Origin: a virus
Direction: 5' to 3' (one strand)
UHGV virus genome: UHGV-1600828
DNA length: 16,701 nucleotides
This document shows positions 49 through 16,241 of the stretch, one piece after another (position 1 is the first letter of the stretch; each line of letters begins with the position of its first letter). The translations under genes were made by a program, and so were the position numbers. The notes under the pieces were generated by a model. The model did no database searches. It worked only from the letters and a program-made list of their open reading frames with translations, and was not told the origin of the DNA.

Positions 49-98
49 ATCTACACGGTTGATCTTGAGTTCCACGGTGAAGAAGGGGATTACCAGTA

Positions 99-517: not shown

Positions 518-2342
518 ATTTGAGCTTAAGGCGTTGATCACCGGTGTCGACAGACTTTCTCCCGCGCTGTCGAAAATGCAAAAGAAAATCCGGGGATTTA
601 AACGCCAGGCGGAAGAAGCATCACAGGGTGGGCTGGCGCTTGGTGGCGGACTGGCAGCGGGTCTGACGCTTTCCCTGAAATCTTATGCCGATCAGGAAAA
701 CGCCGCCACCGGGCTGAAAGTCGCCATGATGGATGCGAACGGCGAGGTCGGAAAGAGCTTTCAGGACATCAATAAACTGGCTATTGGCCTGGGTAACCAG
801 CTACCCGGTACAACGGCTGATTTCCAGAACATGATGCAGATGCTGGTGCGTCAGGGGATCCCGGCAGAAAATATTCTTGGCGGTGTGGGTAAAGCGACAG
901 CTTATCTTGCGGTACAACTGAAAAAAACACCGGAAGCGGCTGCTGAGTTTGCTGCAAAGATGCAGGATGCTACCGGAACGGCGTCAGAAGACATGATGGG
1001 GCTGTTCGACACTATCCAGAAGGCGTTTTATCTGGGCGTTGACGATACCAACATGTTGTCCTTCTTCACTAAAACCAGTTCTGTTCTGAAGATGGTGAAC
1101 AAGGACGGTCTTCAGGCTGCACAGAGCCTTGCCCCCATCAGCGTCATGATGGATCAGATGGGGATGAACGGGGAGTCGGCAGGTAATGCCCTGCGAAAAG
1201 TTATCCAGTCCGGATTAAGCGTTAAGAAAATCAGGGACGTTAATAAAGTTATGGCCCGCCAGAAACTCGGGGTACAGCTCGATTTTACTGACGGCAAAGG
1301 GAGTTTTGGCGGTCTTGATAACATGTTCAGGCAACTGGCAAAGCTGCGAAAACTGACCGACGTTAAGCGAACCGGTGTACTTAAGGCAATATTTGGTGAT
1401 GATGCCGAAACCCTTCAGGTGGTCAATGCTCTGATCGATAAAGGAAAGGATGGTTACGATCAGATCCAGCAGAAGATGAATAAACAGGCCAGCCTGAATA
1501 AACGTGTTCAGGCCCAGCTTGGTACGCTGTCCAACCTGTGGGAGGCAATGACGGGGACCGCAACTAACGGCCTTGCGGCTATTGGCGGCGCATTTTCTGG
1601 TGACGTCAAAAATATCACGCAATGGCTGGGGGAGTTAGGGGAAAAATTCACGAAGTTTGCGGATGAAAATCCCCGGGTTATTCGCGGCGTCGTCGGGCTT
1701 GCTGCCGGTCTTGCGATTCTGAAACTGGGATTGATGGGCGTGGGCAGTGCCATCAGTATCGTCAGCAGGATCATGTCGATGACGCCGATTGGCATGATTG
1801 CGACGGCGATTGCCCTGGCTGCGGGATTAATTATCACTAACTGGGATGTTGTCGGACCTTATTTTAAGAAGCTCTGGGAAACCATTAGTCCTTATTTTGA
1901 GGCTGGCTGGGAACTTCTGAAGAAGGTTTTTGCCTGGTCGCCGCTGGGGATGGTGATCAATAACTGGGGACCGGTTGTTAAGTGGTTTCAGGATATGTGG
2001 GATAAGCTGAAGCCGATTATTGAATGGTTTACCGACAGTTCCGGTGACACGGTCGATGCCATTAACTCGGCGCAGTGGGGCGCGGGTGCTTATGATGCTT
2101 ATGGGACGGGAATACCGCCACGGGGATACACTCCTTATCCGGAGGTGGATCCGGCTCAGGCAAACAACGCCTCCGGTGCCACAGGTCCGAATCCCTTCAT
2201 GATTAATAAAGCTACCGCGCCAAAAGTTGATGGTGAGATCAAGGTATCATTTATAAATATGCCACCAGGTATGCGGGTTACGGAAACACGCTCCAGTGGC
2301 ATTGATATAAATCACGATGTTGGCTATACCCGATTTTGGTAG
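510..2342 (+). CDS. Phage tail tape measure protein, 610 aa
   Basis: ATG at 510 with AGGAGA upstream. Long Gly/Ala-rich protein with a hydrophobic segment (…GVVGLAAGLAILKLGLMGVGSAISIV…). Sits between the chaperone/frameshift gene and the baseplate genes. Confidence 0.85.
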   Translation: MAEFELKALITGVDRLSPALSKMQKKIRGFKRQAEEASQGGLALGGGLAAGLTLSLKSYADQENAATGLKVAMMDANGEVGKSFQDINKLAIGLGNQLPGTTADFQNMMQMLVRQGIPAENILGGVGKATAYLAVQLKKTPEAAAEFAAKMQDATGTASEDMMGLFDTIQKAFYLGVDDTNMLSFFTKTSSVLKMVNKDGLQAAQSLAPISVMMDQMGMNGESAGNALRKVIQSGLSVKKIRDVNKVMARQKLGVQLDFTDGKGSFGGLDNMFRQLAKLRKLTDVKRTGVLKAIFGDDAETLQVVNALIDKGKDGYDQIQQKMNKQASLNKRVQAQLGTLSNLWEAMTGTATNGLAAIGGAFSGDVKNITQWLGELGEKFTKFADENPRVIRGVVGLAAGLAILKLGLMGVGSAISIVSRIMSMTPIGMIATAIALAAGLIITNWDVVGPYFKKLWETISPYFEAGWELLKKVFAWSPLGMVINNWGPVVKWFQDMWDKLKPIIEWFTDSSGDTVDAINSAQWGAGAYDAYGTGIPPRGYTPYPEVDPAQANNASGATGPNPFMINKATAPKVDGEIKVSFINMPPGMRVTETRSSGIDINHDVGYTRFW

Positions 2343-2370
2343 CCAGGATTCCCCTCACAGGTATTGCTGG

Positions 2371-2398
2371 TTGTAAGTCATAAATAGAGTGATAGAAT
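2371..2398 (+). promoter_or_regulatory. Candidate sigma70-type promoter for the moron (TTGTAA -16 nt- TAGAAT)
   Basis: -35-like TTGTAA at 2371-2376 and -10-like TAGAAT at 2393-2398 with a 16-nt spacer, in the AT-rich gap after the tape measure stop. Pattern match only. Confidence 0.3.
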
Positions 2399-2433
2399 TA
2401 ATGCACATTTAGAAAAATGTTAATAGGCGAAAA

Positions 2434-2964
2434 ATGAAAGGCTATATCACAGCAAGTGTAATTCTTGGAGCAGCGGCTATTTTTTCATCTCTCATAATCT
2501 CTGGCAACATCTCCTTTAAAGATGAACATATTATTCAGTTATCTGGAGGAGCCATAAAACTTGGTGATGTTTATAAAGAAAATAAATTGATAAGTGCAAA
2601 GATTATTTTTCCAGATAATCAGGGTGAACAGATTCTTGTTGTCGACGGCAATCCTGAAAACTTTAAGGAGGATTTTCAGGAGAAATTAAATAAAGTAATA
2701 AAAACTTTAAATGCGTCAAAGAAAAAAGATGAAGAGAAAGTTAGCCTGGATAATTTAAGTGTTATTGAAGAGTCTAAACTAGAGCTCGTTTCTGCGGTGC
2801 GTTACTCTGCTCAGTATGTTCCTATGTTTACTCTGACGCTGGACAAAAAAGAAATTACCATGCCTAAAAATACGGTAATATTTCCATTTGCCAGCGATGA
2901 AACAGCTAAGTATTTAAATGAACAACAGCAAAAGTATAAAGATTCGTTGTTTCTGACTCGCTAA
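2434..2964 (+). CDS. Moron-encoded membrane-anchored or secreted protein of unknown function, 176 aa
   Basis: AT-rich ORF inserted between GC-rich tail genes. N-terminal hydrophobic stretch (MKGYITASVILGAAAIFSSLIISG) followed by a Lys/Glu-rich body. Has its own promoter-like and terminator-like signals. No recognisable catalytic motif. Confidence 0.6.
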   Translation: MKGYITASVILGAAAIFSSLIISGNISFKDEHIIQLSGGAIKLGDVYKENKLISAKIIFPDNQGEQILVVDGNPENFKEDFQEKLNKVIKTLNASKKKDEEKVSLDNLSVIEESKLELVSAVRYSAQYVPMFTLTLDKKEITMPKNTVIFPFASDETAKYLNEQQQKYKDSLFLTR

Positions 2965-2983
2965 TTAATAAAATTCATTACAA

Positions 2984-3010
2984 GGCCACCTTCTAATAGG
3001 TGGCTTTTTA
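2984..3010 (+). terminator. Rho-independent terminator-like hairpin after the moron
   Basis: Stem GCCACC (2985-2990) / GGTGGC (2999-3004), 8-nt loop, then TTTTT (3005-3009). Confidence 0.6.
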
Positions 3011-3025
3011 ATTTTCGGAGTATAT

Positions 3026-4354
3026 ATGACGTGGAAAGACAGGCTTCAGGACGCGTCATTTCGCGGCGTGCCGTTTAAGGTTGAAGAAGAAAGTGCGGGA
3101 ACCGGTCGCCGTGTGGAAACACATGAATACCCGAACCGCGACAAACCCTATACCGAAGACCTGGGGAAAATCACTTTTCGCCCGTCCATCACGGCTTATG
3201 TGGTGGGAGATGACTGCTTTGACCAGCGCGATCGCCTGATTGAAGCGCTGAATAAACCAGGTCCCGGCACGCTTGTCCACCCGACATATGGTGAGCTGAA
3301 AGTCTGTGTTGACGGGGAAGTTCGGGTCAGCACATCGAAAAGTGAAGGGCGTATTGTCCGCTTTGACCTGAAGTTTGTCGAAGCAGGAGAACTCTCTTAC
3401 CCCACATCAGGTGCGGCGACGGCGCAGACGCTGATGTCATCCTGTTCTGCACTGGATGACTGCATCAGTGACAGCTTCAGCGGTTTCAGTATCGATGGTG
3501 TGGCGGATTTCGTGCAGAACGACGTTATCGGTAATGCCAGCATAATGCTGGGGTATGTTTCTGATGCGATGAAAGTGGTGGATTCTGCCGTATCGGATGC
3601 CGCCAGGCTGTTGCAGGGGGATATCTCGGTACTTCTGCCGCCGCCATCGTCAGGCAAAAATTTCGTTGAGCAGGTGCAGAAAATGTGGCGTACCGGGAAA
3701 CGCCTTTATGGTAACGCCAGCGACCTGGTCACCATGATCAAAACGCTTTCTGGTGTCAGCCTCGGCAGCGATTTGCAACCGCGCGGCGTCTGGAAAACGG
3801 ACAGTAAAACCACCGCCACAGCGACGCAGCAGCGTAACATGGTTGCCAGCACCCTTCGTACGACTGCAATCAGCGAAGCGGCGTATGCCGTTACCCGATT
3901 GCCTGCGCCAACAACTTCTGCGGTGATGCAGAATGCCGCAGTGGGGCAGTCAACAACACCCGCGCAGAGCTCCGGCTGGCCTGCCGTCACGCATCCGGTG
4001 CTGAACAATGCACCGGCGGTGAAAAACACGGTTGACCTGCCAACGTGGGAAGAACTGACCGACATTCGCGACACACTGAATACGGCAATTGATAAGGAGT
4101 TGTCCCGTACAACCAGTGATGCGCTGTTTCTGGCTCTGCGCCGGGTGAAAGCAGATCTGAATGCGGATATCAACACGCGCCTTGAACAGTCTGCTCGGAT
4201 CATTCAGCGCACGCCGGATGAGGTTTTACCCGCGCTGGTGCTGGCGGCGACCTGGTTTGATAACGCGGCGCGTGACGCGGACATTATCCGGCGTAATGCC
4301 ATTACGCATCCCGGCTTTGTGCCGGTAATCCCTCTGAAGGTGCCAGTGCAATGA
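3026..4354 (+). CDS. DNA circularization protein (Mu N/gp43-like), 442 aa
   Basis: ATG at 3026 with GGAG upstream. N-terminus (MTWKDRLQDASFRGVPFKVEEE…HEYP…) matches recalled Mu N-family N-terminal domain. Position after the tape measure; ATGA overlap with the next gene. Confidence 0.8.
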   Translation: MTWKDRLQDASFRGVPFKVEEESAGTGRRVETHEYPNRDKPYTEDLGKITFRPSITAYVVGDDCFDQRDRLIEALNKPGPGTLVHPTYGELKVCVDGEVRVSTSKSEGRIVRFDLKFVEAGELSYPTSGAATAQTLMSSCSALDDCISDSFSGFSIDGVADFVQNDVIGNASIMLGYVSDAMKVVDSAVSDAARLLQGDISVLLPPPSSGKNFVEQVQKMWRTGKRLYGNASDLVTMIKTLSGVSLGSDLQPRGVWKTDSKTTATATQQRNMVASTLRTTAISEAAYAVTRLPAPTTSAVMQNAAVGQSTTPAQSSGWPAVTHPVLNNAPAVKNTVDLPTWEELTDIRDTLNTAIDKELSRTTSDALFLALRRVKADLNADINTRLEQSARIIQRTPDEVLPALVLAATWFDNAARDADIIRRNAITHPGFVPVIPLKVPVQ

Positions 4355-5430
4355 ACGACAATGTCACGCTACGGGTAAATGGCCGGGAGTGGAATGGCTG
4401 GACATCGGTGCGCATCGGTGCCGGTATTGAACGGCTGGCGCGGGATTTCAGCGTGGAGATCACCCGCCAGTGGCCGGGAGATGAGGGTATCACCACGCTT
4501 CAGCCGCGCATTAAAAATGGTTCAAAAGTGGAAGTGCTGATTGGTGATGAGCTGGTGATCACCGGCTGGGTGGAGGCGACCCCCGTTCGTTACGATGCCC
4601 GTTCGGTCAGCACCGGTATTGCCGGACGTAGTCTGACTGCTGACCTGATTGACTGTGCAGCCGAACCGACACAGTTTAACGGACGATCGCTGGTACAGAT
4701 TGCGCAGGCGCTTGCTGCGCCTTTCGGCATTGAGGTGGTGAACAGCGATGCGCCGTCGGGTGTTATTCCGGATGTCCAGCCTGATCACGGTGAAACGGTG
4801 ATCGAGGTGATCAACAAAATACTCGGTCAGCAGCAGGCGCTGGCTTATGACGACCCGCACGGCAGGCTGGTGATTGGTGGTATTGGCTCAACGCGGGCAC
4901 ATACCGCGCTGGTACTTGGGGAAAACATCCTTTCCTGTGATACGGAGAAGAGTATCCGGGAGCGGTTTTCAGTTTACCAGGTGGCGGGGCAGCGTGCCGG
5001 AAACGACGATGATTTCGGTGAGGCCACCACCACCGCGCTGCGGGCCCGCACAGAGGATGCATTTATTGCCCGTTACCGTCCGATGTATATCAGGCAGACA
5101 GGGCAGGCTACGGGGGCAGGCTGTATTGCGCGTGCTGACTTTGAAGCCCGACAACGGGCGGCGCGGACGGATGAAACCACCTATGTGGTGCAGGGCTGGC
5201 GACAGGGTAACGGTACGCTGTGGCAGCCCAACCAGCGGGTGATTGTCTTCGATCCGGTCTGTGGTTTCGACAATACCGAACTGCTTGTCTCGGAAGTCAC
5301 GTTTACTCAGGACCAGAATGGCACCCTGACGGAAATCCGTGTCGGCCCACCTGATGCTTATCTGCCTGAACCCGAAGCCCCCGGCGCGCGGAAAAAGAAA
5401 AAAACCAGAGTACAGGAGGACCCGTTCTGA
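4351..5430 (+). CDS. Baseplate hub protein (Mu P/gp44-like; P2 gpD-like), 359 aa
   Basis: Start overlaps the upstream stop (ATGA). Family assigned from position in the conserved Mu-type baseplate gene order. Confidence 0.8.
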   Translation: MNDNVTLRVNGREWNGWTSVRIGAGIERLARDFSVEITRQWPGDEGITTLQPRIKNGSKVEVLIGDELVITGWVEATPVRYDARSVSTGIAGRSLTADLIDCAAEPTQFNGRSLVQIAQALAAPFGIEVVNSDAPSGVIPDVQPDHGETVIEVINKILGQQQALAYDDPHGRLVIGGIGSTRAHTALVLGENILSCDTEKSIRERFSVYQVAGQRAGNDDDFGEATTTALRARTEDAFIARYRPMYIRQTGQATGAGCIARADFEARQRAARTDETTYVVQGWRQGNGTLWQPNQRVIVFDPVCGFDNTELLVSEVTFTQDQNGTLTEIRVGPPDAYLPEPEAPGARKKKKTRVQEDPF

Positions 5431-5978
5431 TGAAGGCGATTGAAACCATACAGCGACAACTCCTCGGCCTGATTGGGCGGGCGGTGGTGAAAAGCATCAG
5501 TGCCGCCACGAAATGTCAGACCGTGGATGTGTCCCTGATTGCCGGTGAACCCAAAGCCGGGGTTGAACATCTTGAACCCTACGGTTTTACCGCAAGGGCA
5601 AACAGCGGTGCGGAAGCGGTGGTGTTGTTTCCGGATGGTGACCGTTCTCATGCGGTGGTTGTTACGGTGTCGGACCGACGCTACCGCCTGAAAGGGCTGC
5701 AGACGGGTGAGGTGGCTGTCTATGACGATCAGGGGCAGTCCGTGACGCTGACCCGGGCGGGGATCGTGGTGGATGGTGCAGGTAAAACGATCACGTTTCG
5801 CAATGCGCCTAAGGCTCGTTTTGAAATGGACCTGGAAGTGACCGGACAGGTGAAAGACCTGTGCGACTCCAGCGGCACCACCATGTCAGCGATGCGGCTT
5901 GCCTATAACGGGCATCGTCACAGAGAGAACGGTCAGGGCAGTAACACCGACAAACCTGATAAAGCGATGGAGGCATGA
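5430..5978 (+). CDS. Baseplate spike/assembly protein V-like (Mu gp45-like), 182 aa
   Basis: TGATG overlap with the upstream gene. Size and position typical of gpV-like spike proteins. Confidence 0.8.
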   Translation: MKAIETIQRQLLGLIGRAVVKSISAATKCQTVDVSLIAGEPKAGVEHLEPYGFTARANSGAEAVVLFPDGDRSHAVVVTVSDRRYRLKGLQTGEVAVYDDQGQSVTLTRAGIVVDGAGKTITFRNAPKARFEMDLEVTGQVKDLCDSSGTTMSAMRLAYNGHRHRENGQGSNTDKPDKAMEA

Positions 5979-6403
5979 TGGAACTGTGGCTGACGGTGAA
6001 CGGTAAACGCACCTGTGCCAGCGCACCGATGGATCCGCTGACCCGTGCCGTGGTGATTTCCCTGTTCACCTGGCGGCGGGCTGAACCTGATGACAATGCC
6101 GACGTCCCGATGGGATGGTGGGGGGATACCTGGCCTGCGGTACAGAATGACCGTTACGGCTCCCGACTGTGGCTGCTTCAGCGCAGCAAACTGACCAATC
6201 AGCTGGTGCAGACGGTAAGGGGGTATATCCGCGAATGCCTGCAATGGATGATTGATGACGGCGTGGTGTCCCGTATTGATCTGGATATCCGCCGCACCGG
6301 GATTAATGAACTGGGTAACAGTATCACTCTCTGGCGTCGTGACGGACCGGTAATGATTTCTTTTGATGATCTGTGGAGTGCGATAACGCATGGCGGACAG
6401 TGA
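5975..6403 (+). CDS. Baseplate wedge protein (Mu gp46-like / gpW/gp25-like), 142 aa
   Basis: ATGA overlap with the upstream gene. Small protein between the spike gene and the J-like gene. Confidence 0.75.
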   Translation: MMELWLTVNGKRTCASAPMDPLTRAVVISLFTWRRAEPDDNADVPMGWWGDTWPAVQNDRYGSRLWLLQRSKLTNQLVQTVRGYIRECLQWMIDDGVVSRIDLDIRRTGINELGNSITLWRRDGPVMISFDDLWSAITHGGQ

Positions 6404-7448
6404 ATTTCAGCGCCCGACGCTGGCAGAAAATATCAGTATGCTCCGTAACGATTTATTCGCCAGGCTGGACGTCAGCGACACGCTCCGGCGCATGGATGAA
6501 GACGTGCGGGCAAAGGTGTATGCGGCGGCGCTGCATACGGTTTACGGTTACATCGATTATCTGGCAATGAACATGCTGCCTGACCTGTGCGATGAGTCCT
6601 GGCTGGCGCGACATGCTGCGATGAAACGGTGTCCGCGCAAGGGAGCCACGGCTGCCAGTGGGTATATGCGCTGGGAAGGTGTCAGCGATGGCCTGAAGGT
6701 GACCGCCGGGAGTGTTATTCAGCGCGATGACCTGGTGCAGTACACGACAACTGACGATGCAACCAGCTCCGGTGGTGTCCTGCGCGTGCCGATCGCCTGC
6801 TCAAGTGCAGGTGCGGTCGGTAACGCTGACGACGGTACGGCATTAATCCTGGTCACGCCGGTGAATGGTCTGCCGTCTTCCGGTGTGGCTGACACCCTGA
6901 CAGGCGGATTTGATACTGAAGAGCTGGAAACGTGGCGCGCCCGCGTCATTGAGCGGTATTACTGGACGCCGCAGGGCGGGGCTGACGGGGACTATGTTGT
7001 CTGGGCTAAAGAAGTGCCCGGCATTACCCGCGCATGGACATACCGTCACTGGATGGGAACGGGAACTGTCGGTGTGATGATTGCCAGCAGTGACCTGATT
7101 AATCCCATTCCGGAAGAATCAACGGAAACGGCGGCAAGACAACATATCGAGCCACTGGCCCCGGTGGCAGGCTCTGATTTGTATGTGTTTAGGCCGGTGG
7201 CACATACGGTGGATTTTCATATCCGCGTGACGCCGGACACACCGGAAATACGGGCTGCCATCACCGCGGAGTTGCGTTCGTTCCTGCTGCGTGATGGTTA
7301 TCCGCAGGGAGAACTGAAGGTATCGCGTATCAGTGAGGCGATTTCCGGTGCGAACGGGGAATACAGCCATCAGTTGCTTGCACCGACAGACAATATCTCC
7401 ATTGCAAAAAATGAACTGGCGGTTCTGGGGACGATTTCATGGACGTGA
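6390..7448 (+). CDS. Baseplate J-like protein (Mu gp47-like), 352 aa
   Basis: Overlaps both neighbours (translational coupling). Size and position typical of baseplate J-family proteins. Confidence 0.8.
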
Positions 7449-8023
7449 CAAACGATGATTACATCCGTCTGTTGTCGGCACTGTTGCCCCCCGGTCCGGC
7501 GTGGTCAGCCAGCGATCCGGCGATTGCCGGTGCGGCACCGTCATTAACCCGTGTTCATCAGCGTGCGGATGCCCTGATGCGGGAGCTGGATCCGCGCACC
7601 ACCACTGAACTGATAAACCGCTGGGAGCGTCTGTGCGGCCTGCCGGATGAATGTATTCCGGCAGGGACGCAGACCCTTCGCCAGCGTCAGCAACGGCTGG
7701 ATGCGAAGGTTAATCTGGCGGGCGGCATCAATGAGGATTTTTACCTTGCACAGCTTGCTGCCCTGGGCAGACCAGATGCCAACATCACGCGATACGACAA
7801 AAGCACGTTCACCTGCTCATCGGTCTGTACTGACGCGGTGAATGCGCCGGAATGGCGGTATTACTGGCAGGTCAACATGCCAGCCGCCACAAACACCACC
7901 TGGATGACATGTGGCGATCCCTGTGATTCCGCGCTGCGTATCTGGGGCGACACCGTTGTCGAATGTGTGCTTAACAAACTCTGCCCGTCGCATACCTACG
8001 TAATTTTTAAATATCCGGAGTAA
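7439..8023 (+). CDS. Tail protein I-like (Mu gp48 / YmfQ-like), 194 aa
   Basis: Overlaps the J-like gene by 10 nt and lies immediately upstream of the tail fibre gene. Confidence 0.75.
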
Positions 8024-8026
8024 TCC

Positions 8027-8848
8027 ATGCATCGTATAGACACGAAAACCGCGCAGAAGGATAAGTTCGGCGCGGGTAAGAACGGTTTTACCCGTGGTAA
8101 CCCCCAGACCGGCACACCTGCCACCGATCTGGATGATGACTACTTTGACATGTTGCAGGAGGAACTTTGCAGTGTTGTGGAGGCATCCGGTGCCAGCCTA
8201 GAGAAGGGGCGGCATGACCAGCTGCTTACAGCGCTTCGTGCGCTGCTGTTAAGCCGCAAGAATCCGTTTGGCGATATCAAATCGGATGGCACGGTGAAAA
8301 CGGCTCTCGAAAACCTTGGTTTGGGAGAAGGTGCTCCAGCTATTGGCGTTCCGTTCTTCTGGCCGTCCGCCGCAATGCCAAATACTGTAATCGACAGTTG
8401 GTCCAGTATGGTGTTTTTGAAGTTCAACGGCGCGAAATTCTCTGCCACTGATTACCCTGTGCTGGCGAAAGTGTTTCCGGCGCTAGCATTACCTGACGCA
8501 CGGGGTGATTTCATTCGTATCTGGGATGATGGGCGCGGGATTGATGTCGGACGTACCCTACTTTCAGGGCAATCACACACAATTATGGATCATGCACACA
8601 ATATGGAATTGTGGACGGGGGACGGGCTTGCCGCAGGAAGTGCACGGGAAGGAGTAAACCCAGGAATACTGGCTACATACGGTGACGGGGGAATAGTTAA
8701 AACGGACGAACCCGGTCTTAAGGTGCCTTCCTCACTACGAGCTCTTAGCTCTCGTAGTGTTAAACGTTATGGTGAAATTAGTGGAAATGTAGATACAGAA
8801 ACCCGTCCACGAAATATTGCATTTAACTTTCTGGTGAGGGCTAAATAA
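8027..8848 (+). CDS. Tail fibre protein, 273 aa; constant N-terminal part (to ~aa 97) plus the currently expressed variable C-terminal part inside the invertible segment
   Basis: ATG at 8027. An invertase crossover site lies inside the coding sequence at 8304-8329 (…ALENLGLGE…). A silent alternative C-terminus on the minus strand shares the same GLGE junction. 1-nt overlap with the downstream assembly gene. Confidence 0.8.
8304..8329 (+). other. Left invertase crossover site (hix/gix/pix-like, 26 bp) inside the tail fibre gene
   Basis: CTCTCGAAAACC-TT-GGTTTGGGAGAA. Half-sites resemble the Hin-family TTCTC..AAAACC pattern around a 2-bp core (8316-8317). Its inverted partner is at 10177-10202. 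Confidence 0.6.
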
Positions 8849-9441
8849 TGATACCTGTTTTTGATGAAAATGGGCTGGCTACAGTGCCGGGCGATATGCG
8901 TTGTTTTTATTATAATGCAGTAACGTATGAATATACCGGCTGGTCTGATGAATATATTAATACTGGCGTAAGTATACCCGCCTGTTCCACTGGTATTGAC
9001 CCGGGCGAAAACATCCCGGGAAAAGTGGCAGTATTTACGGGTAAGGGATGGAGCCATGAAGAAGACCATCGCAATGAGACCGTTTACTCAACTGAAAATG
9101 GCGCAGCTGTTACAGTGGATTATATCGGTGCCATCAAAGACGGTTATGTCACGCTTTCACCGTTAACGCCATACGATAAATGGGATGGTGAGAAATGGGT
9201 GACGGATACCGAGGCACAGCATAGCGCCGCAGTAGAAGCGGCAGAAGCACAGCGCCAGTCGCTGATTGATGCTGCAATGGCTTCCATCAGTCTGATTCAA
9301 CTGAAATTACAGGCTGGGCGGAAGCTGACGCAGCCAGAAAACACCCGACTTAACGCTGTGCTGGATTACATTGACGCGGTGACGGCAACAGATACCAGCA
9401 CAGCGCCGGACGTCATCTGGCCTGAACTGCCGGAGGCGTAG
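8848..9441 (+). CDS. Tail fibre assembly protein (currently expressed copy), 197 aa
   Basis: 1-nt overlap with the fibre gene stop. Position and size typical of Tfa/Mu U-like chaperones. Confidence 0.75.
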   Translation: MIPVFDENGLATVPGDMRCFYYNAVTYEYTGWSDEYINTGVSIPACSTGIDPGENIPGKVAVFTGKGWSHEEDHRNETVYSTENGAAVTVDYIGAIKDGYVTLSPLTPYDKWDGEKWVTDTEAQHSAAVEAAEAQRQSLIDAAMASISLIQLKLQAGRKLTQPENTRLNAVLDYIDAVTATDTSTAPDVIWPELPEA

Positions 9442-9856
9442 ACCATTCAATATCTGGCGCACCGGAAGTATCGACCAGTTCCAGTGCGTCCAGATAATCC
9501 AGCCACAAATTATATTGCGCCAGTTCCTCACCTTTCAGACGACCAATTGATGCTTTACCTGGCCATTGTTTACTGTTTATGTATTCGTTGGCCTGGTTAA
9601 TCAATTGCTGCTTTTTAGTTTCGGCTGATGCAATTTGTTCTTCACGTGTTGGTGGAGGAATATCTGCCCATGCAGGCAGTCCATCCTCTCCGACACATCT
9701 GTATTTTCCTTCTGGTGGTGTATCATAGAAATATTCCCTGAAAATTACTTCGTCTATATCAACACCTTTTTCTTCAGGCCATTCACCTTTTTCAACATAA
9801 AGAGACTGAAGTTCGTAAGGATATGCCAGGTTGTTTACGTACAGATATTTCATCAT
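9413..9856 (-). CDS. Alternative tail fibre assembly protein (silent in this orientation), 147 aa
   Basis: Minus-strand ORF convergent with and overlapping the + strand assembly gene by 29 nt. Lies immediately downstream (minus sense) of the alternative fibre C-terminus. Confidence 0.7.
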   Translation of the reverse strand: MMKYLYVNNLAYPYELQSLYVEKGEWPEEKGVDIDEVIFREYFYDTPPEGKYRCVGEDGLPAWADIPPPTREEQIASAETKKQQLINQANEYINSKQWPGKASIGRLKGEELAQYNLWLDYLDALELVDTSGAPDIEWSTPPAVQAR

Positions 9857-10189
9857 TACCAGCCCTTAGCGAAAAACGCACCACCTTCAAGACCATAATT
9901 GCAGTGAGCTATGAAGCCGGTAGTGCTCCAGTTGGTCGCCCCCCACATATTCCCGCCCCCGAAACCACCATCGCACACAATTACAATGCCCGGTGTCTGT
10001 GTAAATGGAATCGGGAATGAAACATTGGCGGATACAGGCCCGTGTTCACCAGGAAAACTAATTCGTCCCCACTGTTCAATTGAACCATCTGGCATTTTTC
10101 GCCAGCCTGAACCTGATGCATATGATGACATATCAGGTATCTGATTTTCCCCTGTTCCCACATTCCGTTTTGCCGCTTCTCCCAAACCA
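9856..10189 (-). CDS. Alternative tail fibre variable C-terminal segment (promoterless and startless; expressed only after inversion)
   Basis: Minus-strand frame reads …[19 protein letters not shown]… through the right crossover site. The GLGE junction matches the + strand fibre at the left site. The ORF-track start at 10230 lies outside the segment and is probably not used. Confidence 0.65.
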
Positions 10190-10202
10190 ACGTTTATGAA
10201 AA
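10177..10202 (-). other. Right invertase crossover site (inverted partner of 8304-8329)
   Basis: Plus strand TTCTCCCAAACC-AA-CGTTTATGAAAA. Its reverse complement shares GGTTTGGGAGAA with the left site. About 55 bp upstream of the invertase start. Confidence 0.6.
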
Positions 10203-10256
10203 TGCAGAAATAACGAGCAAATGGCATCATTCCTGCTTTTGTCAGGGAGATCCACC

Positions 10257-10811
10257 ATGCTTATTGGCTATGTACGCGTATCAACAAATGACCAGAACAC
10301 CGATCTACAACGTAATGCGTTGAACTGTGTAGGATGTGAACTGATTTTTGAAGACAAGATAAGCGGTACGAAGTCCGAAAGGCCCGGACTGAAAAAACTG
10401 CTCAGGACATTATCGGCAGGTGACACTCTGGTTGTCTGGAAGCTGGACAGGTTAGGGCGCAGTATGCGGCATCTTGTTACGCTGATAGAAGAGTTGCGCC
10501 AGCGTGGCGTGAATTTCCGAAGCCTGACTGACAGTATTGATACCAGTACCCCAATGGGCCGTTTCTTTTTTCATGTCATGGGTGCCCTGGCTGAAATGGA
10601 ACGAGAACTGATTGTTGAACGAACAAAAGCTGGACTGGAAGCTGCTCGCGCACAGGGACGAATTGGTGGACGTCGTCCCAAACTTACACCAGAACAATGG
10701 GCGCAGGCCGGGCGATTAATTGCATCAGGCGTTCCTCGCCAGAAGGTGGCGATCATCTATGATGTTGGTATATCGACACTGTATAAGAAGTTTCCGGTCG
10801 GAGATAAATGA
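10257..10811 (+). CDS. Site-specific DNA invertase, serine recombinase of the Hin/Gin/Pin/Cin family, 184 aa
   Basis: ATG at 10257 preceded by GGGAGA. N-terminus [18 protein letters not shown] with catalytic Ser in VRVSTNDQ, and a C-terminal helix-turn-helix region (…GRRPKLT…STLYKK…) match recalled Gin/Hin sequences. ORF-track start at 10221 adds 12 unlikely residues. Confidence 0.9.
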
Positions 10812-10850
10812 AACCGTAGCACGTCGTATGCAAGAAGATCGTGCTGCGGT
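10793..10850 (+). repeat. Imperfect direct repeat copy 1 (invertase 3' end plus downstream hairpin)
   Basis: …CCGGTCGG…GAAACCGTAGCACGTCGTATGCAAGAAGATCGTGCTGCGG. Contains a dyad CCGTAGCACG / CGTGCTGCGG. Similar to 11820-11870 at roughly 80% by eye, with indels. Confidence 0.55.
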
Positions 10851-10871
10851 TTATGCTTATCACTTAAAGAC

Positions 10872-11741
<870 letters not shown>

Positions 11742-11819
11742 CTAACCCTTTGAATTTACATAGCGCAAAAAGATACCTTTCCTCATAATGTGAGCTAATT
11801 TTATGTTTCGTTTGATGAT

Positions 11820-11870
11820 CGGGTCGGTCTCGAAACCCGTAGCCACGTCATATGCAAGAACGTGCTACGA
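11820..11870 (+). repeat. Imperfect direct repeat copy 2 (partner of 10793-10850), upstream of the GIY-YIG gene
   Basis: …CGGGTCGG…GAAACCCGTAGCCACGTCATATGCAAGAACGTGCTACGA, with the same dyad and central TATGCAAGAA as copy 1. Confidence 0.55.
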
Positions 11871-12083
11871 CTGGCTGGTGAACTTCCGATAGTGCGAGTA
11901 TTGAATGATTTCCAACTGTTATCGATTTTGCGTATTTTTTGCATGAGAGGATTTTTACCTCCTCCCACCGATCCTCCATGGCTTTACGCCAGTGTCTCTG
12001 GTCTGCTATGTGCCAAAAGTAGACATTGCTGACATAAAATATATGATTTGACCAACTACAACCGAAGAATAGTCCAATACATC

Positions 12084-12112
12084 TTGGGTCTACATCCAAC
12101 TAGTTATAGAAT
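12084..12112 (+). promoter_or_regulatory. Candidate promoter for the 12150 gene (TTGGGT -17 nt- TAGAAT)
   Basis: -35-like TTGGGT at 12084-12089 and -10-like TAGAAT at 12107-12112. Pattern match only. Confidence 0.25.
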
Positions 12113-12149
12113 CCCGAGTATACATGTTAGTTTTGGACATTCTAATCAC

Positions 12150-12569
12150 ATGAAATATTGCTACCTGATAATTTTAAGCTTGACTATTTCTTCTGCTCAG
12201 GCTGAGACATTTCCCGCCAAGCTAACCTGTAATACGGGTGAACAAATTACTCTTAAAGTTACTGGTCCAGAGCAGCGACTGATCTACACTTCTTCACTCT
12301 ATGGAACATTCCATGGATATCTCGATGTATTTAAAGGGTTATCACCTGAGCGTCAATATGAGGTACTTGCCAATATTCATGGAATAGCTCGATATAGGGA
12401 CAGCCCGTTACATTTTACTCTCCTAATGAAACGAACCAATGGTGAGATGGATAATGGCTCAATTATCTATCGATATACCTACCTGAAAGACGAGCAACTG
12501 ATTGATGAAGAAGGACATTGCAGTCCGATAAAAGATGGCGGATTTATTGAGGGGAGCAAAAGTTACTAA
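12150..12569 (+). CDS. Small secreted/periplasmic protein of unknown function, 139 aa with predicted signal peptide
   Basis: ORF-track start at 12048 is a TTG. First ATG at 12150 gives MKYCYLIILSLTISSAQA|ETFP…, a typical Sec signal peptide with an AQA cleavage motif. Two Cys in the mature part. No strong SD. Confidence 0.5.
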   Translation: MKYCYLIILSLTISSAQAETFPAKLTCNTGEQITLKVTGPEQRLIYTSSLYGTFHGYLDVFKGLSPERQYEVLANIHGIARYRDSPLHFTLLMKRTNGEMDNGSIIYRYTYLKDEQLIDEEGHCSPIKDGGFIEGSKSY

Positions 12570-12884
12570 GGCCAAGCGTATAGTTATCGGTATGCTTACC
12601 GTTTGCAGACCCCACGGCGCTCAGGCAGCCCGCTCCGTGCCAATAGCAGGCATTACTATGGTCTGTTCCGTAACAGTCATTTTTACCAAAGTATATGGTT
12701 AGAACTATGCCGAAAATGCCCTCATACCATAATTAGAACTAACAATTAATTTTTTAAATTAAAATAGTTTAAAGAGTCATTTTTAATCACTTATTTATCG
12801 TGCTTATAGCTCGAAAGATACACCTTATCATCATCCCCTGTTACAATGTAGGGAGTAGGTCAATAAGATTAGAAGGAGATTTAA

Positions 12885-14351
12885 GTGAAAAAAATCAGTG
12901 ACGAACAAATTAATATCGAGGCTCAATCAGGATATAGACCATGGACTATAGATTCTGGTATCGGATTGCTTCCCTTTTCAGAATTAGGTGATCGAGAATT
13001 TGAGTTGCTATGTTATTTGTTAGTAAAGAACGAAATTGAAGATGGAAAGCATAAAAATATATCCTCAATATCTTTAATGCAAGGAGTTTCTGAAAGAGGA
13101 CGCGACTGCGTGCTATACCATAACGGTGTTGTAAGTGGTTTAATACAATGTAAAAAAATGCAAGGTAGAATAACTAGACCGCAAGCATTAAGAGAAATAA
13201 TTAAATTTTTATTGTTTTCCATTATTGATAATAGTTTGCTTCCCGCTCCTGATTGTTTCGAATATAAGTTGTATGTATCAAATGACATCGCTGAAACTAC
13301 AAACTCACTAATTCATTCTTACTCAACCGAAGTTGAGGTGGAAATAAAGTCTGATACTATCAGTAAGTATATAAAAGATGTTGTATCTGAATACGAGTCA
13401 TTCAAAATTTTTGAAAACAGCCTACCAATTAGTAAAGTTATTGATCTTTTGAGACGGATAAATGTAACCGCATCAAATGCAACAGATTTAACCTTGCGAG
13501 TTCATAAGTATGATTCATTGTTATCATTGTTTTTTAATGTAAAAACTGTAATCGACTTAGAATCTGCAGATAAAGTTATACGTAACGCGCTTGATGACTA
13601 TGGTTTAAAATACTTGACCGATGAAGACTTAAAACAACTTCAAATTCGCATTTCAAATACTAAAGAAGAAAATCGAATAAATTTAGGTTTTGTGGATTTC
13701 TTTGGTTATAACAAAGAGTTTTTTAAATCCTTGAAAGGCGAGCCATTTAAACAAGTGATAGAAGCGGTTGCGTCGGTAACATTATCATTAGATAAGTATT
13801 TAATGGAATTCATAAATAGTAAAATCAATGAGCTAGTTTTTGAAAACGTCACAATAAAATTATTAAATCCAGGGAGGATTCACCCTTTCAGTGTGGGCGT
13901 GGTGGCACCTTACCTATTTCAGAGACTGTCCATTAAAGTCGTCTCAAGAAAGTTGCCAACAGAGTTAGTCACCAAATTTTATGAACAAGCATCTCTGTCC
14001 AAAAAGGAATTAATCGACTCGATAGCAATACAGCTCTTTGAAACAAGCGAAAGAGTTATGAAAGGAGATTTCAGTCAGTTAGTGGGAAATCCAGAAGACA
14101 TACAGTTTAAAAAGAGAATATTCACTCATATACATAATGGATTCAACAGTATAGAAGATGCAAAAACTACTTTTTCTCGAGACATCCAGATTATAATGCC
14201 AACATTAGATTTTATAGAAGAAAAAATAGGTGAGCTATTACAAGAAGAGCGTACTGTGGTAATAAAAGACGCCTCTTTTTTGGATAATGATGATGAGATT
14301 AAGAAAATAGCAAAAACGCTGAGTATGATCGAACCCAATCCAGGCGCATAG
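12885..14351 (+). CDS. 488-aa protein: N-terminal Mrr/restriction-endonuclease-like (PD-(D/E)xK-type) motif plus large uncharacterised C-terminal domain; candidate defence protein
   Basis: GTG start at 12885 with AAGGAGA RBS 6 nt upstream. N-terminal …REFELLCYLL…GVSERGRDCVL…GLIQCKKM… resembles the recalled Mrr-catalytic pattern (E … D … QxK). Remaining ~380 aa are Lys/Glu/Ile-rich with no motif recognised. Confidence 0.7.
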   Translation: MKKISDEQINIEAQSGYRPWTIDSGIGLLPFSELGDREFELLCYLLVKNEIEDGKHKNISSISLMQGVSERGRDCVLYHNGVVSGLIQCKKMQGRITRPQALREIIKFLLFSIIDNSLLPAPDCFEYKLYVSNDIAETTNSLIHSYSTEVEVEIKSDTISKYIKDVVSEYESFKIFENSLPISKVIDLLRRINVTASNATDLTLRVHKYDSLLSLFFNVKTVIDLESADKVIRNALDDYGLKYLTDEDLKQLQIRISNTKEENRINLGFVDFFGYNKEFFKSLKGEPFKQVIEAVASVTLSLDKYLMEFINSKINELVFENVTIKLLNPGRIHPFSVGVVAPYLFQRLSIKVVSRKLPTELVTKFYEQASLSKKELIDSIAIQLFETSERVMKGDFSQLVGNPEDIQFKKRIFTHIHNGFNSIEDAKTTFSRDIQIIMPTLDFIEEKIGELLQEERTVVIKDASFLDNDDEIKKIAKTLSMIEPNPGA

Positions 14352-14387
14352 AATAACTGTAGTTTTGGTATTTTTATTTTTAGTAGC

Positions 14388-14413
14388 TGTGTTAGTGTAA
14401 TTGCACTAACACA
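14388..14413. repeat. Perfect 10-bp-stem inverted repeat (CTGTGTTAGTG-taattg-CACTAACACA)
   Basis: Stem 14388-14397 pairs with 14404-14413 around a 6-nt loop. Not followed by a U-run on either strand, so not a canonical intrinsic terminator. Confidence 0.5.
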
Positions 14414-14417
14414 CTCC

Positions 14418-14470
14418 TTGAGCTGCTCCCCGTTGCTTAGGACACTTCAATGTTAGTCATGAAGTAGTGA
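14418..14470 (+). repeat. ~50-bp imperfect direct repeat, copy A (partner at 16647-16701)
   Basis: TTGAGCTGCTCCCCGTTGCTTAGGACACTTCAATGTTAGTCATG… aligns with TTGACCTGCTCCCCGTTGATTAGTACACCCCGATGTTAGTAATG… at the window end, roughly 80% identical by eye. Confidence 0.6.
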
Positions 14471-14745
14471 ACTTCCGCTCATCGCTCATAACAGACATAA
14501 ACTTCAGTTATGGCATAAAGGTATGCATGCTGGGTGGGGAAAGTATGAAGGAAAAGAAGACTGCTGCGCCGTTTGTCGTCACGTTTATCTTCATTGGCTA
14601 TGCAAGTCGTAATACAAGGTGGGACAAAACTGAGACACATAAGGCCTCGCAATGGCTTGCAAGGCTTTACATGTTTTGATGTGGTGGGACGTGTGAGCGC
14701 AGTGTTGATGGGGTAATGCTTTGAATTAGAAGTGGATTCTTATAA

Positions 14746-14790
14746 TTCGTAATGCGAAGGTCGTAGGTTCGACTCCTATTATCGGCACCA
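14746..14790 (+). other. 3' fragment (~45 nt) of tRNA-Thr(CGU) (thrW-like); likely prophage att junction (attR-type remnant)
   Basis: TTCGTAATGCGAAGGTCGTAGGTTCGACTCCTATTATCGGCACCA: anticodon-loop remnant reading CGT, T-arm GTAGG-TTCGACT-CCTAT, 3' acceptor strand TATCGGC, discriminator A and CCA. Upstream sequence cannot form the 5' acceptor, D-arm or anticodon stem, so it is not an intact tRNA. Matches the recalled E. coli thrW 3' end. Confidence 0.7.
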
Positions 14791-15254
14791 TCTTTTCTCG
14801 TAAAATCATCAAGTTACTATTGCAGTATTTTGCTTTGTTCAACACTAATGTGCAATTTTGCGCGTTGTAGGTGTGGCAAAATTGTGGCAAAGCTAATTGG
14901 TCAGCATTTGCATCATTACGCTAAACAAACTACTTCCTTATAAACGTAATGTGTTGACCTTATCGATGCGTTGCATGAAAGACAGTTTAGTGATGAAAAA
15001 TCTTATAAATTAACAGCTTAAATACATTATCCGATAGAGCTAAGTGCCAGAAAGGGACACTCAGGTTACATAACAATGAGTGATACAGTTCACGTAGTGA
15101 AGGTACTATGCCTAGGTGTTTGATTACACTTTGATCATTGATGATACGCTCATGAAGGTATTACTTTCCTGTAATGAGCAGGTAGGTAACGATGTCGAAC
15201 TAAATGAATTTATAGTAAACTTTGCAACAAGAGAACAAGGGAGTATGAGGGGTT

Positions 15255-16241
15255 ATGGCTACTGCAGAGCAGATCAAAGCTTTATTGAAAAGCCACGTTG
15301 ATCGTGATGATCAGCGTTTCTTTTCTATTGCTTTGCAGGTGGCAGCTAAGGAAGCAAGGCAAGGTCATCATAAGCTTGCTAATGATATAAAAAACTTAGT
15401 TGATAAAAATCAGAAAACAACGAGTTCTGTAGGTTTAGTTGAAAAACGACTTACACCATTTGTTAAGCAGCCTGATGGTGATCTTAAGGGGTTACTTGAG
15501 CAAACGAACAAGCCAGTACATCTTCAAGATCTGGTGATTTCTGGAAGCGTTAGGGAAAGATTGAATCAGGTTCTGCTTGAACAAAAACAGAAAGATAAAC
15601 TTTCTGAGTTTGGGCTTATTCCAAGAAGAAAAATTCTTTTCACTGGTCCTCCCGGTACTGGTAAGACAATGTCCGCATCAGTCATTGCTACAGAGTTAAA
15701 GCTACCACTTTATACAGTCGTCTTAGATAATCTAATCACTCGCTATATGGGTGAAACTGCAGCTAAGCTGCGTTTAATTTTTGACCACATACGGCAAACA
15801 AGAGCTGTATATTTTTTTGACGAGTTCGATGCTATAGGAACTCAGCGTGGCGCTCAGAATGACGTTGGAGAAATTCGTAGGGTCTTAAATTCTTTTTTAA
15901 TGTTTGTAGAGCAGGATGATTCTGAGAGCATAGTTTTAGCTGCAACCAATCATCCAGAGCTTTTAGATCGCGCCTTATATAGACGATTTGACGATATTAT
16001 ACCGTTCACAAGGCCTGAGGATAATCTAATCAGGAATCTTATTGAACAGAGACTCGCTGTCTTTGACCTCGGTAATTTATTTTGGAGTGAGATCATTGAT
16101 AGTGCTTCAGGTCTAAGTGCAGCGGAGATCACGCGAGCAAGTGAAGATGCTGCCAAAGAATCAGTGCTTTATAATGCAAACAATATTACAACCGATTTGT
16201 TAGTAAAGGCTATAAAGCGTAGGCAAGAAAGTAGACAATAA
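15255..16241 (+). CDS. Classic-clade AAA+ ATPase, 328 aa
   Basis: Walker A GPPGTGKT, Walker B VYFFDEFD, sensor-1/second region of homology LAATNHPELLDRALYRRFD with an Arg-finger-like RR. ~120-aa N-terminal non-ATPase region. GAGGGG RBS-like upstream. Confidence 0.8.
   Translation: MATAEQIKALLKSHVDRDDQRFFSIALQVAAKEARQGHHKLANDIKNLVDKNQKTTSSVGLVEKRLTPFVKQPDGDLKGLLEQTNKPVHLQDLVISGSVRERLNQVLLEQKQKDKLSEFGLIPRRKILFTGPPGTGKTMSASVIATELKLPLYTVVLDNLITRYMGETAAKLRLIFDHIRQTRAVYFFDEFDAIGTQRGAQNDVGEIRRVLNSFLMFVEQDDSESIVLAATNHPELLDRALYRRFDDIIPFTRPEDNLIRNLIEQRLAVFDLGNLFWSEIIDSASGLSAAEITRASEDAAKESVLYNANNITTDLLVKAIKRRQESRQ

Follow-up and report, generated by a model that had tools for sequence, protein, structure and literature searches.

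A Pin/pix-type tail-fibre inversion switch in the Mu-like tail module of a prophage

The window, that is, the whole stretch of 16,701 nucleotides of the virus genome UHGV-1600828 that was analysed, carries the long-known Pin/P-segment switch of E. coli, an already described system that is a close relative of the Mu G segment. We are almost certain that it operates as a site-specific inversion switch of the Pin/pix kind, a member of the Din family (Hin/Gin/Cin/Pin), set in the Mu-like tail module of a prophage; none of the observations spoke against this. The gene order was baseplate J/gp47, gp48 (YmfQ), fibre, tfa, tfa', fibre', invertase, and the following features were assigned.

8027-8848, + strand: tail-fibre gene in its current assembly, 273 aa, from ORF and translation
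8304-8329, - strand: left crossover site, pixL, reading TTCTCCCAAACC AA GGTTTTCGAGAG on the - strand, core dinucleotide at 8316-8317
8317-10189, no strand: invertible segment (P-segment type), 1873 bp core to core
8848-9441, + strand: tail-fibre assembly chaperone A, cognate to variable part A, 197 aa, Pfam Caudo_TAP 1.2e-27
9413-9856, - strand: tail-fibre assembly chaperone B, cognate to variable part B, 147 aa, Pfam Caudo_TAP 6e-32
9856-10190, - strand: alternative fibre C-terminus B with a gp53-like C domain, presently unfused to the constant part
10177-10202, + strand: right crossover site, pixR, reading TTCTCCCAAACC AA CGTTTATGAAAA, core dinucleotide at 10189-10190
10257-10811, + strand: pin, which encodes a small serine DNA invertase of 184 aa (Pfam Resolvase 2.9e-52, HTH_7 4.8e-13)
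10275-10346, no strand: presumed recombinational (Fis) enhancer inside the 5' end of pin, placed by homology only

Crossover sites, fibre cassettes and invertase

The initial annotation had proposed two inverted 26-bp Hin-family-like sites at 8304-8329 and 10177-10202; these coordinates were borne out, and both sites fit the family consensus. On the + strand the left site reads CTCTCGAAAACCTTGGTTTGGGAGAA, and the reverse complement of the right site reads TTTTCATAAACGTTGGTTTGGGAGAA. The two 26-mers match at 21 of 26 positions, with the inner half and the core identical, and a repeat finder picked up the two as an inverted repeat of 20 nt (8311-8330 and 10176-10195, 95% complementary). On the + strand, 8316-8317 reads TT and 10189-10190 reads AA, which is the same core in inverted orientation. 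The Din-family consensus pattern gave two matches in the whole 16.7-kb window, both of them these sites, where 0.01 were expected by chance. The arrangement characteristic of the Din family, two inverted 26-bp dix-consensus sites with the same asymmetric central dinucleotide, was thus found. A third site with shufflon-like multiple inversions was rejected, as the window holds only these two. Comparison with the gix, hix and pix literature, which the initial annotation had recommended, identified the sites base for base: at 26 of 26 positions they are identical to pixL and pixR, both in the E. coli K-12 e14 sequence and as published (PMC3241671, Table 3). Most of the IMG/VR loci with a Pin at least 86% identical (n = 80) carry both sites, inverted and 1.6-2.1 kb apart. 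Of these 80 loci, 74 have a near-invariant right site, located -79 to -81 relative to the ATG of the invertase; the remaining 6 have none, in some cases because the contig ends.

Between the sites, a segment of ~1.87 kb had been described that carries a fibre tip and assembly gene on the + strand and an alternative pair on the - strand. ORFs and Pfam assignments agree with this description, as the segment contains two convergent sets, each consisting of a fibre C-terminus and a tail-fibre-assembly gene. The 273-aa fibre is composed of a constant N-terminus (aa 1-101) and variable C-terminus A; the latter resembles StfE and shows a weak tail-collar motif (Pfam Collar 0.0027, under that family's cutoff). 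The protein matched PHROG tail-fibre families at 2e-68. Over residues 1-103 the fibre shares 99% identity with K-12 StfP, and for tip A the identity to K-12 StfE is 42%. Chaperone A matched PHROG 105 at 5.6e-83 and is 63% identical to K-12 TfaE, and chaperone B is 58% identical to K-12 TfaP. The 29-nt overlap noted earlier between the convergent assembly genes lies at 9413-9441 and is likewise present in the K-12 e14 tfa pair. An inverted repeat at 9360-9377 and 9486-9503 was considered as a bidirectional terminator and discarded; it corresponds to the LDYIDA/LDYLDA motif of the convergent homologous tfa genes. The remaining short direct and inverted repeats of the window resemble chance matches.

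Tip B (Pfam Gp53-like_C 1.3e-7) belongs to an ORF that is open to an ATG at 10230 via an 18-codon leader, the first 13 codons of which (10230-10191) lie outside the segment. Leader and tip B together give a product of 124 aa. The leader ATG, outside the segment, is kept in all of the ~80 related loci, and the leader peptide varies. BLASTP of tip B against the K-12 e14 proteins, including the StfP tip, gave no match at E <= 1e-3. A good Shine-Dalgarno sequence is not evident for the - strand ORF, where AGGA abuts the ATG, and a promoter and terminator scan of 7300-11000 yielded 5 promoter-like sites with 4.9 expected, which is chance level. At that level the scan speaks neither for nor against a pin promoter or the initial annotation's description of the - strand pair as promoterless. 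Translation confirmed that both fibre variants meet the constant N-terminus at a GLGE motif encoded across the site: A and B each join it at ...ENLGLGE, encoded by the inner half-site GGTTTGGGAGAA. In the flipped sibling 0H24, the fused fibre of constant part and tip B is annotated as a complete 207-aa CDS. As in Mu G-type switches, either of two C-termini can continue a single constant N-terminus in frame, the join lying at the site; each C-terminus has its own Caudo_TAP chaperone behind it, and the switch stands directly after baseplate gp47/gp48. The fibre tips are exchangeable alleles. Judged from reading-frame continuity, the + strand variant (tip A with chaperone A) would be in the expressed position, and the fibre genes are probably transcribed from the upstream late operon.

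The invertase gene starts 54 nt to the right of the segment's right site, with ATG 10257 as the likely start rather than ATG 10221, and is annotated as pinE in RefSeq. Its product matches K-12 PinE at 174 of 185 compared positions, stop codon included (94% identity). Alignment to Mu Gin (structures 3UJ3 and 4M6F) is full length, with E = 1.9e-93 for 3UJ3 and an identity of ~80% estimated from the alignment by eye. Pin contains S9, R42, K46, K47, R50, Q150, R153, and L154. The residues specific to Fis/enhancer-dependent invertases are K47, K/R48, K/R51, Q151, R154, and L155 in Hin numbering (PMC3798978), and all of them are present in Pin as K46, K47, R50, Q150, R153, and L154, the offset of +1 having been taken from the 1HCR alignment. 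With a catalytic N-terminal domain carrying the nucleophilic Ser9 and a C-terminal HTH, the protein is a small serine recombinase. Sites identical to pixL and pixR and an invertase orthologous to PinE place the locus in the Pin/P-segment (e14) type.

The presumed enhancer was placed with the help of the P1 record, where the Cin enhancer is annotated at cin nt 19-90. The corresponding stretch of pin holds two G-N13-C 15-mers: GTATCAACAAATGAC, shared unchanged by pin and gin, and GTGTAGGATGTGAAC. Synonymous divergence in pin codons 1-35 was 0.20 versus 0.30 elsewhere, a modest depression that is not corrected for phylogeny and is compatible with an enhancer without proving one. The two candidate Fis 15-mers are 49 bp apart; the spacing of the Fis cores in Hin is 48 bp, and because of this difference the exact Fis cores are left unclaimed. 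Inversion by Pin probably depends on Fis and the enhancer.

Orientation in public genomes and proposed mechanism

The initial annotation had named the finding of only one orientation as an outcome that would speak against the switch. Public genomes were searched with the locus and with an in-silico inverted version of it. That outcome was not seen. Across 3001 nt, records matching at 99.9-100% identity exist for each orientation: 7 complete E. coli records have that of the window and 9 the flipped one, eight of which matched the inverted construct at 100% and one at 99.9%. Opposite orientations were also found among isolates sharing ST and serotype, namely 0H23/25/26 versus 0H15/18/24 in one group and CX05/15 versus CX04/07/21 in another (strain groups from PMC11169474). 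Over 31 kb, the meat-plant isolates 0H26 and 0H24 differ by the inversion (8311-10195) and a single 1-nt gap; their colinear blocks end at window position 8330 and resume at 10176. Even within the CX15 assembly both forms occur, one in the chromosome and the other in an unpolished linear contig, 18.4 kb long, that covers this region again. The breakpoints fall within 8316-8330 each time, inside the 26-bp sites. The sibling genomes are thus indirect but strong evidence of actual inversion with crossover inside the sites. Window positions 54-14791 are 100% identical to the copy in strains found in both orientations, and from these near-identical relatives we infer that the switch is active in the window's own strain as well.

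In the mechanism that we propose, Pin dimers would bind both inverted 26-bp pix sites and, together with host Fis bound to the enhancer in the pin 5' end, would assemble an invertasome on supercoiled DNA. Ser9 would then make its cuts in both sites at the AA/TT dinucleotide in the centre (8316-8317 and 10189-10190). The junctions place the crossover within 8316-8330, and the exact cut is probably at the central dinucleotide. Rotation of one half by 180 degrees and religation would flip the 1873 bp, so that the constant N-terminus, which comprises aa 1-101 with GLGE at its end and has its coding sequence reaching up to the site, continues in frame into one or the other of two unrelated tips. 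A clonal population would in this way contain two fibre types, each tip with its own assembly chaperone. Inversion of the e14 P segment has been measured in cultures (PMC4272514; PMC12529663). By homology with Mu and P1, the two tips probably differ in receptor specificity, and the switch would then affect host range.

Host element and alternative readings

The element has a Mu-like tail and baseplate module, with HK97-type head genes in sibling strains, and ends at a tRNA-Thr fragment. Searches of the whole window with Rfam (gathering thresholds) and ARAGORN found nothing. Membership in e14 itself, the cryptic lambdoid prophage at icd, was considered and rejected on account of the Mu-like tail and baseplate, PD-T4-3 in place of mcrA, and the tRNA-Thr end; what the window shows is a P region of the e14 type carried by another and fuller prophage. 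Window positions 1-53 are one end of an IS30 that lies within the tail tube gene. Among the complete RefSeq E. coli genomes none covers positions 1-110, and the IS30/tail tube junction (34-75) had no exact match among the genome contigs searched. Because IS30 interrupts the tail tube gene, virion production in the window's strain is doubtful; there the fibre might not be incorporated into virions at all, and transcription of the late operon may be affected. A further IS-like junction was seen near 16648. The switch is flanked by the defence genes PD-T4-3 (10872-11696) and IetA (15255-16241).

It is possible, but in our judgement unlikely, that the host has adopted the switch as an anti-phage device in which free fibre-tip proteins mask outer-membrane receptors and block the adsorption of other phages. 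With virions no longer formed by the prophage, selection would then favour making such free tips, among them the - strand product that begins at ATG 10230. Inversion of the K-12 P segment is reported to yield the chimeras StfP2 and StfE2, of which StfE2 reportedly lowers T2 adsorption (PMC12529663), and the window has the equivalent "inverted" layout, with an StfE-like tip on the StfP N-terminus and the tip in the StfP slot behind the leader. The equivalent K-12 chimera was reported as produced in the same 2025 paper (PMC12529663). Preservation of the - strand leader ATG across the ~80 related loci despite the variable leader peptide would fit such a role, as would the IS30-interrupted tail tube gene in this strain and the flanking PD-T4-3 and IetA. 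However, tip B, with no BLASTP match (E <= 1e-3) among the K-12 e14 proteins, has no link to T2 or to any particular receptor. The - strand ORF has neither an evident promoter nor a good Shine-Dalgarno sequence, and the conserved TGGCATCAT may have been preserved for the pin promoter or leader and not as a start codon. In addition, the receptor-masking claim in K-12 is the work of one laboratory, and the classical virion role suffices in apparently complete prophages with the same module, such as that of 0H26.

A frozen relic, in which the anatomy is intact and inversion has stopped or is without consequence in the decaying prophage of this strain, is still less probable. IS30 in the tail tube gene at the left window edge and the IS-like junction near 16648 are consistent with decay, and such modules do persist in defective elements, as in K-12 e14. 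Yet pin, both sites, and the four cassette genes are intact, and the DNA from 54 to 14791 is shared without a difference with strains in both orientations. The defective e14 of K-12 itself inverts readily in culture (PMC4272514), with ~30% inverted in the wild type (PMC12529663).

RecA-dependent recombination between short inverted repeats, or assembly error, without any role of Pin, has a negligible chance of explaining the orientation differences among isolates: the arms do share 15 identical bases within the 20-nt inverted repeat and the additional contig of CX15, built from long reads, is unpolished and has frameshifts, but repeats of 15-20 bp are too short for efficient RecA recombination, they are exactly the published Pin substrates, the breakpoints lie inside the 26-bp sites every time, the same flip occurred independently in two lineages and in the unrelated strains D2 and CAVP776, and the flipped form is present in nine polished chromosomes or contigs.

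Read as a Pin/pix inversion switch, the locus offers little that is new: it represents a textbook phase-variation system in a clean form with every part intact. It also illustrates that the activity of an invertible segment can be demonstrated from public assemblies alone, here through isolates of the same ST and serotype that differ by this inversion and through one assembly with both forms. In annotation pipelines the cassette that is silent is called "hypothetical" or "pseudogene", labels that change with the orientation. The sole forward-looking angle is the recent claim that cryptic-prophage inversions act in phage defence, for which this locus is a reasonable second test case. We consider it rather improbable that in the IS30-damaged prophage the switch toggles free fibre-tip proteins, with leader plus tip B (124 aa) masking a surface receptor and blocking the adsorption of some other phage. 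If true, the single K-12 report on StfE2 and T2 would become one case within a wider family of interchangeable tips, located in a defence neighbourhood with PD-T4-3 and IetA(S).

Comparison with known systems

The e14 P segment, reportedly described by Plasterk and van de Putte in 1985 and by Mehta et al. in 2004, is the nearest known system. It shares with the window both 26-bp sites, a Pin of 94% identity, a fibre N-terminus that is 99% identical to StfP, the order ymfQ-stf-tfa / tfa'-stf' / pin, the 29-nt tfa overlap, and the leader ORF to the right of pixR. The cassette alleles differ, with tip A at 42% to StfE, tip B without a BLASTP match, and the chaperones at 58-63%. The segment is 1873 bp here versus ~1827 bp in K-12 e14 (core to core, from site coordinates), and its orientation in the window is opposite to that in the MG1655 reference. 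The element of the window has a full Mu-like tail/baseplate module and finishes with a tRNA-Thr fragment; e14, in contrast, is a stump located at icd. The gene after pin is PD-T4-3 here and mcrA in e14.

The Mu G segment is colinear (gp47-gp48-S(c+v)-U-U'-S'v-gin) and has the dix consensus in common with the window sites. One candidate enhancer 15-mer is identical, and the Mu S' ORF also begins just outside the segment. The Mu segment is larger (~3 kb), its constant part has ~169 aa compared with 101 aa here, and the Mu tips are much larger. The core dinucleotide is GA in Mu gix and AA in the window sites. Host-range switching has been experimentally established for Mu, whereas for the window prophage it is read from homology.

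The P1 C segment with Cin and cix and the Min system of p15B share the recombinase family and the tail-fibre logic, and the inner half-sites of p15B mix (TTCCCCCAAACC AA CGTTT) resemble pixR. In P1, however, cin lies on the other side of its own segment, with cixL at the cin 3' end, and p15B undergoes multiple overlapping inversions among six sites, compared with only two sites in the window. Salmonella Hin/hix shares the invertase subfamily, the conserved Fis- and enhancer-contact residues, and 26-bp sites with an AA core. Hin flips a promoter and acts as an on/off and alternative flagellin switch without exchange of C-terminal coding segments, in contrast to the window, where two fibre C-termini are exchanged behind one constant N-terminus.

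Crossover sites and genes of the invertible segment

The initial annotation had proposed, from the sequence alone, an invertible tail-fibre host-range switch. The following features were assigned in and around the segment, in which tip B denotes the alternative fibre C-terminus and tip A the one joined to the constant N-terminus in the window.

Features of the invertible segment and its flanks
6390-7448, Mu-type Baseplate_J gene, upstream of the fibre gene (Pfam/PHROGs)
7439-8023, Mu Gp48/YmfQ baseplate gene, upstream of the fibre gene (Pfam/PHROGs)
8027-8848, + strand, tail fibre ORF, 273 aa (ORF list, translation, Pfam and PHROGs)
8848-9441, + strand, tail-fibre assembly chaperone, 197 aa (ORF; Caudo_TAP in Pfam and PHROGs)
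9413-9856, - strand, tail-fibre assembly chaperone, 147 aa (ORF; Caudo_TAP in Pfam and PHROGs)
9856-10230, - strand, tip B ORF with Gp53-like C-terminal domain (ORF, translation, Pfam/PHROGs)
10257-10811, + strand, invertase gene pin, 184 aa, Resolvase and HTH_7, probable start at ATG 10257 (ORF, Pfam/PHROGs)

When 10177-10202 is reverse-complemented, 21 of its 26 bases equal those of 8304-8329. The two sites are identical throughout the inner half and the core and for one base more; the five mismatches fall in the outer half-sites, one of them at 8315 next to the core. The pair was the top inverted repeat of the repeat finder, and the Din-family consensus pattern matched only these two sites in 16.7 kb (0.01 matches expected by chance). 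In the published orientation the sites read TTCTCCCAAACC AA GGTTTTCGAGAG and TTCTCCCAAACC AA CGTTTATGAAAA. A comparison with published gix/hix/pix sites had been suggested, and it gave an exact match to pixL and pixR (Table 3 of PMC3241671) as well as to the two K-12 e14 sites, of which one lies in stfP/ycfK and the other upstream of pinE. G-L-G-E is encoded by the inner half-site GGTTTGGGAGAA, so that both fibre C-termini run on in frame from ...ALENLGLGE. ORFs, translations, and repeats thus bore out every element of the initial observation: the site positions, the four genes, the GLGE join, and the 29-nt overlap of the chaperone genes (9413-9441).

The encoded proteins were compared with those of the K-12 e14 P segment. 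Invertase and PinE agree at 174 of the 185 positions compared (counting the stop codon), and the alignment of the invertase with the Mu Gin structures is full-length (E = 1.9e-93). Identity to StfP is 99% over fibre residues 1-103; tip A shares 42% with StfE, and one chaperone shares 63% with TfaE, the other 58% with TfaP. For tip B, no BLASTP match (E <= 1e-3) was obtained among the K-12 e14 proteins, the StfP tip included. Together with the pix-identical sites, these matches identify the Pin/P-segment system, here with different cassette alleles. The feature is the already known Pin/pix system of the Din invertase family, and its cassette alleles are variant but already catalogued.

The baseplate genes have a GC content of about 0.55-0.60, and parts of the segment drop to 0.40-0.49. 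Near 9400 the GC skew switches sign, as would be expected of cassettes that are convergent and exchanged horizontally. An 18-nt inverted repeat (9360-9377/9486-9503, 83% complementary) spans the 3' ends of the convergent tfa genes. It was rejected as a terminator; it is the C-terminal LDYIDA/LDYLDA motif common to both tfa genes, read on opposite strands.

Orientation of the segment in sibling genomes

A flipped sequence was made in silico by inverting 8316-10190, and all complete RefSeq E. coli genomes were searched. The window orientation was found in 7 records (0H23, 0H25, 0H26, CX05, CX15, VREC0761, and ECONIH4) over 3001 nt at 99.9-100% identity, and the flipped form in 9 (0H15, 0H18, 0H24, CX04, CX07, CX21, D2, CAVP776, and a second CX15 contig). 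Public assemblies of sibling strains therefore answer the question of both orientations raised by the initial annotation and support its interpretation as an invertible, here already known, tail-fibre switch. Both orientations occur within the 0H strains, one ST399 O154:H12 meat-plant group, and within the CX strains, one ST635 O10:H25 group (PMC11169474). Over 31 kb, only two differences separate 0H26 from 0H24, a single 1-nt gap and the inverted interval 8311-10195 of the window; colinear blocks stop at 8330 and restart at 10176. Because position 8315 is among the five differences of the outer half-sites, the crossover is confined to 8316-8330, an interval that takes in the core dinucleotide 8316-8317.

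The CX15 chromosome has the window orientation. NZ_CP081745.1 (related locus L002; CX15 'plasmid unnamed5', 18,368 bp, linear) repeats the prophage/island region of the chromosome with a flipped segment; it is unpolished and frameshift-ridden. This contig is not a plasmid; it is a duplicate, an assembly by-product of orientation heterogeneity. On the simplest reading, both orientations were present in the sequenced CX15 culture. Inversion of the K-12 e14 segment has likewise been shown in culture (PMC4272514; PMC12529663).

The module was also surveyed in 80 IMG/VR loci encoding Pin at >=86% identity. A near-invariant right site lies 79-81 nt before the pin ATG in 74 of them; it was not seen in the other 6, where in some the contig ends. 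Further upstream comes the left site, inverted, at a distance of 1.6-2.1 kb in most loci; a few have it at about 3.3-3.5 kb. The Pin module is thus common, with variable cassette lengths. The pix-like sites are direct in two IMG/VR loci (L034 and L065), and two others (L026 and L057) have two pixR-type sites without the pixL-type outer half. The four may represent degenerate or rearranged forms of the module or belong to multi-site systems.

Invertase, enhancer, and silent cassette

As expected from its homologues Hin, Gin, and Cin, Pin would bind both pix sites as dimers, Fis would occupy an enhancer located within the first part of the pin gene, at its 5' end, and an invertasome would assemble on supercoiled DNA. 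Ser9 would then make a staggered cut in the AA/TT core, and one half would turn 180 degrees before the ends are religated. The requirement for Fis, the precise place of the cut, and the effect on phenotype are inferences. Catalytic Ser9 and Arg42 are present in Pin. Specific residues of Fis/enhancer-dependent invertases are Hin K47, K/R48, K/R51, Q151, R154, and L155 (PMC3798978), and the corresponding Pin residues are all present (K46, K47, R50, Q150, R153, and L154). The Cin enhancer is annotated at cin nt 19-90 in the P1 GenBank record, and homology with P1 places a candidate enhancer at 10275-10346. Two G-N13-C 15-mers lie in it, one of them GTATCAACAAATGAC, which pin shares with gin. Synonymous divergence among 65 distinct pin genes was 0.20 in codons 1-35 versus 0.30 in the rest, a weak indication of an overlapping DNA signal.

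The initial annotation called the - strand cassette promoterless, which is not established. Its short leader ORF (10177-10230) starts at ATG 10230, just outside the segment to the right of pixR, and reads into it, so that the silent cassette always has a start codon. All ~80 IMG/VR Pin loci retain this ATG (+ strand, TGGCATCAT), and the leader peptide varies. In K-12, the corresponding chimera StfE2 is reported to be produced upon inversion and to block T2 adsorption (PMC12529663, 2025). A similar anti-phage role, as a rival or additional function of the switch, is improbable here: BLASTP found no similarity between tip B and the K-12 tip, and no signal for expression of the tip B ORF was seen. 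The locus is a clean worked example of the known Pin/pix switch, and the defence hypothesis could be tested on it as a second case.

Prophage context and comparison with known systems

Window 1-53 is an IS30 end, matching the ends of IS30 copies and not the prophage (junction 53/54). The element went into the tail tube gene, 46 nt short of its stop codon; 0H26 has this gene intact. The junction had no match in complete RefSeq E. coli genomes or genome_contigs. Because IS30 interrupts this gene, the prophage is probably defective in the window's strain. Tail assembly may fail in that strain, and a polar effect of the insertion could extend to the late operon from which the fibre gene must be transcribed.

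Beside pin, a - strand gene (10872-11696) encodes a GIY-YIG protein matching the PADLOC anti-phage defence model PD-T4-3 (E = 2.7e-140). Two cargo ORFs follow, 12048-12569 (173 aa) and 12885-14351 (488 aa), with no significant Pfam, PHROG, or PADLOC match (best, LmuA/WYL, E ~0.004); their neighbourhood is defence-rich. A 3' fragment of tRNA-Thr (...GGTTCGACTCCTATTATCGGCACCA) at 14767-14791 is presumably the prophage att repeat; a complete tRNA was not found in the window. Downstream lies an IetA island in the window versus a CP4-like island (ykfI/yafW) in sibling strains, so islands at tRNA-Thr are arranged differently. Next to the gene for the IetA-type AAA ATPase (15255-16241, PADLOC 5.5e-77) comes a 139-aa ORF (16250-16669); at this position other genomes annotate an S8 peptidase or a hypothetical protein (IetS-like). 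Genomes with the IetA island match only to 16647 (junction near 16647/16648). Because the last ~54 bases match a genome carrying ISSen4 at that place, an IS may disrupt the IetA partner gene.

Membership in the e14 element itself was rejected on prophage context, the gene after pin, and the element end. In sibling strains the module instead belongs to a prophage that has HK97-type head genes and whose Mu-like tail is complete, and the window element ends at the tRNA-Thr fragment. In e14, mcrA lies beside pinE, whereas here the PD-T4-3 gene occupies this slot; the position beside the invertase therefore looks like a defence-cargo slot. The window orientation is opposite to that of the P segment in the MG1655 reference. 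Gene order is colinear with gp47-gp48-S-U-U'-S'-gin of phage Mu, in which the S' ORF also begins outside the G segment, like the - strand ORF here.
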